A stretch of 531 bases of DNA. Source: Escherichia coli. GTDB lineage: Bacteria > Pseudomonadota > Gammaproteobacteria > Enterobacterales > Enterobacteriaceae. The stretch is from NCBI RefSeq assembly GCF_003334335.1, contig NZ_QOWQ01000174.1; one strand, written 5' to 3'. The notes under the pieces are model-generated. The model was not told the DNA's origin. It saw only the letters and a list, made by a program, of their open reading frames with translations, and did not search any database. Each line of letters starts with the position of its first letter. Position 1 is the first letter of the stretch. Shown here in pieces: positions 46 through 531 of the stretch. The translations under genes and the position numbers were made by a program.

Positions 46-132
46 TTACCCGTTGAAATTTTTAAATACCTCACAATTCAGGCGGTTGACTGTTGTCTGG
101 TTTGCGGGGAGTTTGTTAAAAGAAACTGGCAT
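46..132 (-). CDS. Candidate small ORF (28 aa, MPVSFNKLPANQTTVNRLNCEVFKNFNG) with a strong SD
   Basis: On the - strand: SD AGGGGGA (145->139), 6-nt spacer, ATG (132->130), stop TAA (48->46). Spacing and SD strength are good, but the peptide is short, has no recognisable family features, and I see no clear promoter. Confidence 0.2.
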   Translation of the reverse strand: MPVSFNKLPANQTTVNRLNCEVFKNFNG

Positions 133-140
133 GGTGAATC

Positions 141-157
141 CCCCTGTGCGGAGGGGC
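141..157. repeat. GC-rich palindromic 17-mer CCCCTGTGCGGAGGGGC, copy 1 of 2
   Basis: 15 of 17 positions identical to 277-293 (CCCCTCTCCGGAGGGGC), which forms the + terminator stem. Both copies are self-complementary hairpins. Confidence 0.4.
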
Positions 158-206
158 AATCAGCAACTGGTGTTTTGTCACCGACCCTTATCCTTTCTGT
201 GCGGGT

Positions 207-530
207 TCAGGTGCTGATACTGAACTCACCGGGAGGCACCCGGCACCATGCAATGGCACATAGCGCCACTCTCCAGCCCCTCTCCGGAGGGGCTTTCTTA
301 TGGACAAAAAAAGCCCGCGCTGGGAGACGCGGGCGGCAAGGAATAAACAACAAAACGTGAAGTAATATTTCAGCTGGCGAATAATATCCGACAGTAATCA
401 CTCTGCGCAATAGCGCGGCCTTTTTCGTATTGCGGGCTGTAGTCTTCCTCCTGCCATTGTCCTGTAACTTCCGGACTTCAGCCCGTTCCCTCATCTGACT
501 CACAACATTATCCCGACCGGGAGGATTCAT
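207..530 (-). CDS. Hypothetical ORF (107 aa) from the six-frame track; doubtful as a full-length gene
   Basis: Open frame from ATG 530-528 to TGA 209-207. The N-terminal ~55 codons (530 to ~365) are basic and protein-like (MNPPGRDNVVSQMRERAEVRKLQDNGRRKTTARNTKKAALLRR...). The frame then runs through the - strand terminator (334-304) and the + strand terminator hairpin before reaching a stop, and it is antisense to the + ORF. Its RBS would lie outside the window. Confidence 0.2.
   Translation of the reverse strand: MNPPGRDNVVSQMRERAEVRKLQDNGRRKTTARNTKKAALLRRVITVGYYSPAEILLHVLLFIPCRPRLPARAFFVHKKAPPERGWRVALCAIAWCRVPPGEFSIST
275..300 (+). terminator. Rho-independent (intrinsic) terminator, + strand
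   Basis: Stem 275-282 AGCCCCTC pairs with 287-294 GAGGGGCT (8 bp, 6 G:C), tetraloop TCCG 283-286, followed by T-rich tail TTTCTTA 294-300. Sequence downstream of the same hairpin on the - strand is not T-rich, so the orientation is +. Confidence 0.6.
277..293. repeat. GC-rich palindromic 17-mer CCCCTCTCCGGAGGGGC, copy 2 of 2 (coincides with the + terminator stem)
   Basis: 15 of 17 positions identical to 141-157. Confidence 0.4.
304..334 (-). terminator. Rho-independent (intrinsic) terminator, - strand
   Basis: Stem 313-319 GCCCGCG pairs with 328-334 CGCGGGC (7 bp, all G:C or C:G), 8-nt loop 320-327. On the + strand it is preceded by A7 (306-312), so on the - strand the transcript reads GCCCGCG-UCUCCCAG-CGCGGGC-UUUUUUU-GU. 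Downstream on the + strand (GGCAAGGAATAAAC) is not U-rich. Confidence 0.7.
304..380 (-). ncRNA. Candidate small RNA on the - strand ending at the - terminator; 5' end undefined
   Basis: On the - strand a U-rich stretch (CUUCACGUUUUGUUGUUUAUUCCUUGCC, about 362->335) directly precedes the terminator hairpin with U7. This resembles the 3' module of Hfq-dependent sRNAs. A weak promoter-like pair lies upstream on the - strand: TTGCGC (410->405), 18-bp spacer, TATTAT (386->381). Confidence 0.25.
519..528 (+). promoter_or_regulatory. Shine-Dalgarno / ribosome-binding site for a + strand gene starting at the right edge
   Basis: GGGAGGA at 519-525, a near-consensus SD, then spacer TTC and ATG at 529-531. 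If the true start is the first codon beyond the window, the spacer is 6 nt, which is also well placed. Confidence 0.45.
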
Positions 531-531
531 G
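529..531 (+). CDS. Possible start codon of a downstream + strand gene truncated by the window end; product unknown
   Basis: ATG at 529-531 lies 3 nt after the SD GGGAGGA. Only the start codon is inside the window, so no protein evidence is available. The same CATG palindrome also provides the ATG of the - strand ORF 207..530. Confidence 0.3.

Follow-up and report, generated by a model that had tools for sequence, protein, structure and literature searches.

Overlapping open reading frames over convergent prophage sRNAs of Escherichia coli are very probably artefacts

The window, i.e. the whole stretch of 531 nucleotides (nt) of Escherichia coli DNA that was analysed here, carries two open reading frames (ORFs) on opposite strands, called below the + ORF and the - ORF, and two small RNA (sRNA) genes which converge upon each other. 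The two ORFs overlap over 207-360. It is very probable that both of them are artefacts lying over the convergent prophage sRNAs STnc100 and an RNA of the EcOnc08/21/42 type. The features on which this reading rests are the following.

100-305, + strand: copy of the sRNA STnc100 (Rfam RF02076), equivalent of EcOnc05/13/27, found with cmscan
275-305, + strand: Rho-independent terminator of STnc100, stem 275-282 with 287-294, then TTTCTTATGG, from the terminator scan
306-531, - strand: the part inside the window of an EcOnc08/21/42-type RNA, from the match of a Northern probe; its 5' end is probably beyond the window, inside nanS-p
306-334, - strand: Rho-independent terminator of the - strand RNA, stem 334-327 with 320-313, U-run 312-306, from the terminator scan
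175-360, + strand: the + ORF, TTG start, 61 amino acids (aa), from the six-frame ORF listing; judged not to be a gene
207-530, - strand: the - ORF, ATG start, 107 aa, from the six-frame ORF listing; judged not to be a gene

The + strand RNA is STnc100. Its model RF02076, which has a gathering score of 47 bits, was matched by cmscan over its full length (1-206) with 143.2 bits and E = 1e-33, and the same model was also scored by 8 of 8 related phage loci and by 12 of 12 loci from IMG/VR. The published STnc_100 primer for quantitative PCR (qPCR), CATGGTGAATCCCCCTGTGC (PMC12370729), is identical to window 130-149. The terminator scan returned 4 terminator-like sites in the window as compared to 0.8 expected from shuffles. 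The RNA is made up of the following parts, in addition to the terminator.

129-136 with 244-251, + strand: closing helix
141-145 with 152-156, + strand: stem-loop 1
about 160-200, + strand: variable region
203-210 with 221-228, + strand: hairpin 3
230-234 with 240-244, + strand: invariant hairpin (CCGGG/CCCGG)

The structure is conserved. In 68 distinct variants that have the invariant 26-nt core (window 225-250), the 33 pairs of the Rfam helices and the terminator were counted, with slid partners as controls, and it was found that 97.0% of the cells were paired as against 37.5-55.0% in the controls. Compensatory changes were seen in 6 pairs, three of them in 203-210/221-228 and three in the terminator. 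Helices 1-4 of STnc100 were recovered independently by RNAalifold, and the fold of the single sequence has a z of -3.15. It has been described by Tree et al. 2014 that, downstream of PR', convergent sRNA genes occupy the space between a moron coding sequence (CDS) and the phage ORF that follows it, such pairs being present in the prophages Sp3, Sp4, Sp5, Sp9, Sp10, Sp11, Sp15 and Sp17 (PMC4104026). The Northern probes EcOnc27, EcOnc13 and EcOnc05 of that study fall in the STnc100 copies of Sakai Sp5, Sp3 and Sp4, and STnc100 is therefore the + member of the convergent pairs. Homologous copies have been detected by Hfq cross-linking and analysis of cDNA (Hfq-CRAC) and Northern blots in Sakai (PMC4104026), and by RNA sequencing and Northern blot in EDL933 (PMC5331693). 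STnc100 homologues are thus expressed and bound by Hfq, and the copy in the window is likely to behave in the same way if the Sakai literature is carried over to it.

The - strand RNA was recognised by the Northern probe EcOnc08/21/42 (supplement of PMC4104026), which is the same as the + strand of window 380-414 in 35 of 35 bases and therefore detects an RNA of the - strand. EcOnc08, EcOnc21 and EcOnc42 were recorded by Tree et al. 2014 as Hfq-CRAC peaks of the Sakai prophages Sp4 and Sp15, and the probed RNA is about 271 nt long in Sakai (PMC4104026). The identity of Sp4 with window 59-531 is 91.8%, and over 251-440 there is hardly any difference. The window and the Sakai EcOnc08/21/42 loci share the strand, the terminator and the 35-nt probe, whereas an extra base near 488 and some substitutions in 440-510 are found in the lineage of the window; the size of about 271 nt and the RNA ends come from Sakai only. 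The stem of the - terminator has 8 pairs, 7 of them GC, followed by TTTTTTT, and the + and - terminators sit back to back. With its 3' end at the 334-306 terminator, an RNA of 271 nt would start near 576, and it would then be antisense to the ribosome-binding site (RBS) and start codon of nanS-p, if it is as long here as in Sakai. Peak coordinates in the paper refer to NC_002695.1, and at Sp5 those of NC_002695.2 are about 137 nt higher; because of this offset the probe sequences were relied upon. The EcOnc08 peak probably corresponds to window 308-380 and the EcOnc21 peak to window 386-471. A full-text literature search with the sequence of the RNA body found nothing.

Taken together, the window is very probably the moron intergenic region of a lambdoid prophage of Shiga toxin (Stx) type, downstream of Q/PR' and upstream of nanS-p. 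STnc100 would run on the + strand from about 100 or 129 to 305 and end at the hairpin 275-294, and the - strand RNA would end at the hairpin 334-313 and its U-run. As transcription in a lysogen would halt at the terminator belonging to each RNA, neither ORF would have a stop codon on the terminated transcript. The ORFs are very probably accidental stop-free stretches over structured, moderately GC-rich RNA genes and give no functional protein. The GC content is 58% over 207-360 as compared to 51% in the whole window.

The original prediction, made from the letters of the window, had described two ORFs mutually antisense over 207-360 and reading through GC-rich hairpins, and this was reproduced by the ORF listing and by the terminator scan, which places the hairpins at 275-294 (+) and 334-313 (-), both of them read through by both ORFs. 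What it missed is that the hairpins are the terminators of two known convergent Hfq-binding sRNAs. It had also noted a TTG start without a Shine-Dalgarno sequence for the + ORF, and there is indeed no GGAGG-like sequence upstream of TTG-175 (160-174 is tcagcaactggtgtt); none is present upstream of the ATG of the - strand either (gtgtttaaatgtcATG). Its remark that the - ORF has no stop until some 100 nt past its own terminator is borne out by measurement, as the stop (209-207) lies about 97-99 nt past the end of the U-run of its own strand (306). Frame 1 of the + strand, said to be open from position 1, has no stop codon up to 357, and TTG-175 is the earliest ATG, GTG or TTG in it. It was considered that this frame could be the 3' part of a real upstream gene. 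This was rejected, as the stop codon of the DUF3927 CDS upstream, at 32-34, is in frame 2 and no start codon stands in frame 1 ahead of TTG-175. The chance level was taken from 2000 dinucleotide-preserving shuffles of the window. A + stop-free run of 119 codons or more was found in 11.6% of them, a - run of 107 codons or more in 12.8%, and the two jointly in 1.75%. Either ORF singly is unremarkable, and the pair is mildly unusual by chance.

No match to either translation was found in Pfam or NCBIfam. Among 5.8 billion protein clusters, 23-24 proteins were matched per ORF. Those with a name come from E. coli, Shigella or Stx phages and those without one from ENA, JGI and Logan assemblies; they are hypothetical proteins, mostly partial at contig ends, and differ in length and frame. 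In Q9FBI1 an A-run shorter by one base moves the sequence into the other - frame past ARAF, and in P0008 and P0017 the N-terminal part is read in another frame than in the query. By profile and cluster searches no homologue of either ORF was found outside this DNA family. The sole match in PHROG is phrog_31368, a family of 40 aa and of unknown function, to the - ORF with E = 1e-17. Residues 15-44 of the - ORF (window 399-488) are aligned to profile positions 7-36 of 40, and the C-terminal half that crosses the hairpins is excluded. ORF46 of phage P13374, one ORF examined in the frame of phrog_31368, is a 40-aa call on the same conserved DNA; the match is therefore likely to stem from conservation of the DNA, and it lends coding no independent support.

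Conservation of the frames was followed in 82 distinct sequence variants from IMG/VR and phage loci. The median length without a stop codon across the core was 133 nt in the + frame of the window and 174 nt in its - frame, the window itself having 357 and 321 nt, and a run as long as that of the window is reached by 5 (+) and 4 (-) of the variants, the window itself included. The remaining four frames have medians similar to those of these two, and no frame across the conserved core remains open in all the variants. Relatives at least 80% identical were available over 207-530 (n = 31) and over 175-360 (n = 17). Frame-shifting insertions or deletions (indels) were present in 31 of 31 in the region of the - ORF and in 14 of 17 in that of the + ORF, the other three being at least 99% identical. 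A base near 488 is present in the window and absent from all 31 relatives of the - ORF region. The A-run at 306-312 has 7 A in the window and 6 A in many close relatives, and so the reading frames across it shift. The 107-aa - ORF exists only by virtue of the 7-A run and of a private 1-nt insertion near 488, by which two frames are fused. The segments 100-224, 251-305, 306-334, 335-402 and 403-531 reassort independently among the variants, some of which are 100% identical in one segment and 45-60% identical in the adjoining one, and the module boundaries coincide with the ends of the RNA genes. Such modularity fits separate RNA and leader modules and would not be expected of one spanning ORF.

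Substitutions and codons give the same picture. The original prediction had named synonymous-biased substitution in orthologous regions as one of the things that could overturn it. The variable sites are flat over the codon positions, 27/30/33 for the - ORF (p = 0.74) and 19/22/18 for the + ORF (p = 0.80), whereas the first 600 nt of nanS-p from the same loci, taken as positive control, gave 32/25/106 (p = 8e-17). A codon model was trained on 19 annotated CDSs of the same prophage, with leave-one-out scoring. These CDSs reached a log-likelihood ratio of +0.159 per codon (standard deviation 0.085), 18 of 19 being positive, while the + ORF scored -0.110 and the - ORF -0.043, values typical of wrong frames. 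Neither ORF has a kept frame, an excess of third-position changes, the codon usage of the prophage genes or an RBS. The homology and codon-usage checks which the original prediction had proposed have thus been run, with no Pfam or NCBIfam match, no hit outside the E. coli, Shigella and Stx-phage DNA family and negative values for both ORFs against positive ones for the prophage CDSs. Its claim that the ORFs are likely artefacts is supported by homology, frame conservation, substitution phase and codon usage alike, and none of the findings that it had named as refuting it was obtained.

The same data bear on the question of whether the - strand RNA could be a small mRNA or have a dual function, the ATG at 530-528 starting a short basic protein of about 43-44 aa (MNPPGRDN...RKRPRSCAE) in most variants and of 107 aa here. 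An RNA of the - strand has been detected over the region by experiment in Sakai (PMC4104026), a 43-44 aa ORF starts at the same ATG in many variants, and phrog_31368 and several hypothetical proteins of the databases overlap the region. However, in variants of 80% identity or more the ORF has 9, 34, 43, 44, 48 or over 76 aa, there are 1-nt indels at 440, 488 and 503, and neither phrog_31368 nor ORF46 of P13374 shares the frame of the 43-aa ORF. The ATG has no Shine-Dalgarno sequence upstream of it and is the mere complement of the conserved start region of nanS-p (TTCATG). The counts of variable sites in 403-528 are 10/12/15 for the three codon positions (p = 0.60), the codon log-likelihood ratio is -0.053, and in the window no stop codon stands before the terminator. 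A protein product of the - strand RNA is therefore regarded as most improbable.

A comparable suggestion can be made for STnc100, namely that it is a dual-function sRNA in which GGGAGG (231-236) and ATG (248-250) drive a peptide of 32 aa (248-346). The arrangement GGGAGG-N11-ATG is invariant in the core of the family and resembles a translation start, an annotated CDS of phage vB_EcoS-611R1 begins at the same ATG, and some EDL933 copies have a ribosome coverage of 1.5-3.2, but other copies in that strain have 0-0.1 (PMC5331693). The peptides are not conserved: 48 different ones, of 2-76 aa, are found in the 82 variants, only 5 of 70 have a stop before the end of the terminator tail, and 252-275, downstream of the ATG, is the most indel-rich part of the RNA. 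In the conserved structure the Shine-Dalgarno-like GGG and the ATG each take part in base pairs, and the codon log-likelihood ratio is 0.007. A peptide made from STnc100 is, if anything, still less credible than a protein made from the - strand RNA.

The reading of both ORFs as artefacts over two convergent sRNAs is thus preferred, and it should be noted that several observations weigh against it. Ribosome profiling in EDL933 gave coverage up to 3.2 for some STnc100 copies (PMC5331693). Many variants again have the 43-44 aa ORF at the same - strand ATG, residues 15-44 of the - ORF are matched by phrog_31368 with E = 1e-17, and the ORF pair exceeds 98% of the shuffles in length. The data on expression and on RNA ends were obtained with other copies, those of Sakai, and are applied to the window by analogy. 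In lytic growth, Q-modified polymerase would read through the + terminators, and this would place the + ORF on a long late mRNA. On the other side, the identity and the conserved structure of STnc100, the lack of a coding signal and the exact match of the - strand RNA probe are seen in the DNA itself. Expression and Hfq binding are probable by comparison with the near-identical copies of Sakai described in the literature, and the 3' ends of the RNAs in the window copy should lie at the two terminators.

The convergent sRNA pair is a feature already known, and the window adds nothing new in kind. Its main value is in annotation hygiene, as recognition of the convergent sRNAs removes phantom proteins. 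Gene callers have repeatedly put hypothetical proteins, pseudogenes and even a PHROG family on this region, and STnc100 and the EcOnc08/21-type RNA adjoin stx and nanS-p in pathogenic strains. Any targets and roles, and a possible control of nanS-p in cis, pertain to the sRNAs and not to the ORFs.

The slot of the - strand RNA is also used by other sRNAs. According to Rfam, AsxR or AgvB lies on the - strand directly abutting STnc100 in the related loci L008, L010, L118, L059, L036 and L127. The - strand RNA of the window was compared with them. It was rejected as a member of either family, since no match to the models of AsxR (RF02703) and AgvB (RF02702) was obtained in the window at a cutoff as loose as E <= 1, and the 3' regions could not be aligned. 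The slot on the - strand, convergent with STnc100 and directly abutting it, is common to all of them, and so are a promoter block of the form GGCCGCGC..TTGCGC-N18-(-10) and a UUGCC motif before a GC-rich terminator. In contrast, the conserved 3' region of about 42 nt of AsxR and AgvB is absent from the window, the RNA body and the terminator sequence differ, and the detected RNA of the window type is about 271 nt long whereas AsxR and AgvB are 51-60 nt. The hairpins in the terminator slot differ in sequence between the window, the AsxR and AgvB types, L009 and L012, each being a GC-rich stem preceded by an A-run on the + strand. If it is as long here as in Sakai and ends at 306, the - strand RNA may act as a cis-antisense repressor of nanS-p, perhaps also of downstream late genes in lysogens, or in trans like AsxR and AgvB, a proposal which is tentative and on balance unlikely. 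If it is true, the RNA of the window type would occupy the anti-sRNA slot as a longer RNA with a function distinct from the others.

The promoter block was compared with the upstream regions of AsxR and AgvB loci confirmed by Rfam.

376-420, - strand: promoter-like block common to AsxR and AgvB, -35 TTGCGC (410-405), 18-nt spacer, -10 TATTAT (386-381)

The window has TTGCGC-N18-TATTAT as against TTGCGC-N18-TAAAAT-N5-+1 in AsxR and AgvB, the distance to the STnc100 terminator being equal, and the predicted +1 is near 375. Judging from its sequence, the block may drive a short isoform of about 70 nt or may be a relic. A conserved promoter block next to an unrelated RNA body suggests either a short isoform or a cassette in which the body can be exchanged. 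The predicted RNA of about 70 nt (375 to 306) would consist of a free 5' region and the terminator, with a fold z of -2.6. It was rejected as the RNA that was detected, because the probe (380-414) lies upstream of the predicted start and detects about 271 nt.

For STnc100 no promoter was returned by a sigma-70 scan of the window. A candidate was noticed by eye on the + strand, TTGTCT (93-98)-N18-TGtTAAAAG (114-122). This putative promoter at 93-122 would start transcription near 129 and give 177 nt up to 305. The Northern sizes of the homologous Sakai copies are 177-247 nt (PMC4104026); a product of 177 nt fits the shortest of them (177-187 nt) and not those of 222-247 nt, and longer 5' ends must therefore also exist. 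The copy in the window agrees with known STnc100 RNAs in the full covariance model, the helices, the terminator and the match to the qPCR primer. Its location is also the same, with PR', tRNAs, stx or a different moron upstream of it and nanS-p or a holin downstream. It is unlike the copies of Stx2 phages in the variable region (about 160-205) and in 252-275, and it scores 143 bits with RF02076 whereas copies of the Sp5/933W type score 208. STnc100, which is EcOnc05/EcOnc13/EcOnc27 of E. coli O157 Sakai, is related to PasD of enteropathogenic E. coli. It was also observed that two tandem STnc100 copies stand a few hundred bases apart in the prophage contigs L021, L022, L026, L057, L079, L107 and L111, two core matches being 275-484 nt apart as listed for L021, L022, L026, L057 and L079.

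The surroundings of the sRNA pair are those of a prophage, and DNA identical to the window is present in E. coli prophages and in phage PhiR5_1. The remaining features of the window are the following.

1-34, + strand: 3' end of a DUF3927/TciB-like gene, stop TAG 32-34 in frame 2, from the annotation of NZ_AP022815.1 and phage JLK-2012
516-531, + strand: RBS and start codon of nanS-p, GGGAGG 519-524, start 529-531, from the RefSeq/GenBank annotation of identical DNA
403-425, + strand: terminator-like hairpin in the nanS-p leader, stem 403-418 (CTGCGCAATAGCGCGG), then CCTTTTTCG, from the terminator scan

Upstream there are a Q antiterminator, tRNA genes and TerB/DUF3927 (TciA/TciB-like) genes. 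Downstream there are nanS-p, which encodes a 9-O-acetyl-sialic-acid esterase of the SASA family, a holin and a lysozyme. In Stx2 phages a homologous element stands directly after stx2B. The window has matches in 2777 of 5426 complete E. coli genomes; the number of places in a genome has a median of 2 and reaches 12.

No CDS corresponding to either ORF is annotated in the three annotated copies inspected, and the sole call inside the region among them is a pseudo-CDS at window 119-259 (-) in NZ_CP027586.1. Hypothetical CDSs or pseudo-CDSs of the public records were seen in the nanS-p leader and on, or antisense to, STnc100, one at window 119-259 (-) and others at 630-797 (-) and 898-1020 (-) of L008, 775-891 (+) of L009 and 1181-1297 (-) of L011. 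The phrog_31368 profile matches the leader (window 399-488) in the frame of the call at 898-1020 of L008. The calls look like annotation artefacts spread by similarity.

Two further elements were noticed in the nanS-p leader. An inverted repeat at 433-444/474-485, of 12 bp with one mismatch, lies in its most conserved part (440-487); it is not clearly kept in Sakai Sp4, where A441T adds a second mismatch. The hairpin at 403-418 is retained in relatives, with changes in its loop, and overlaps the -35 block of the opposite strand.

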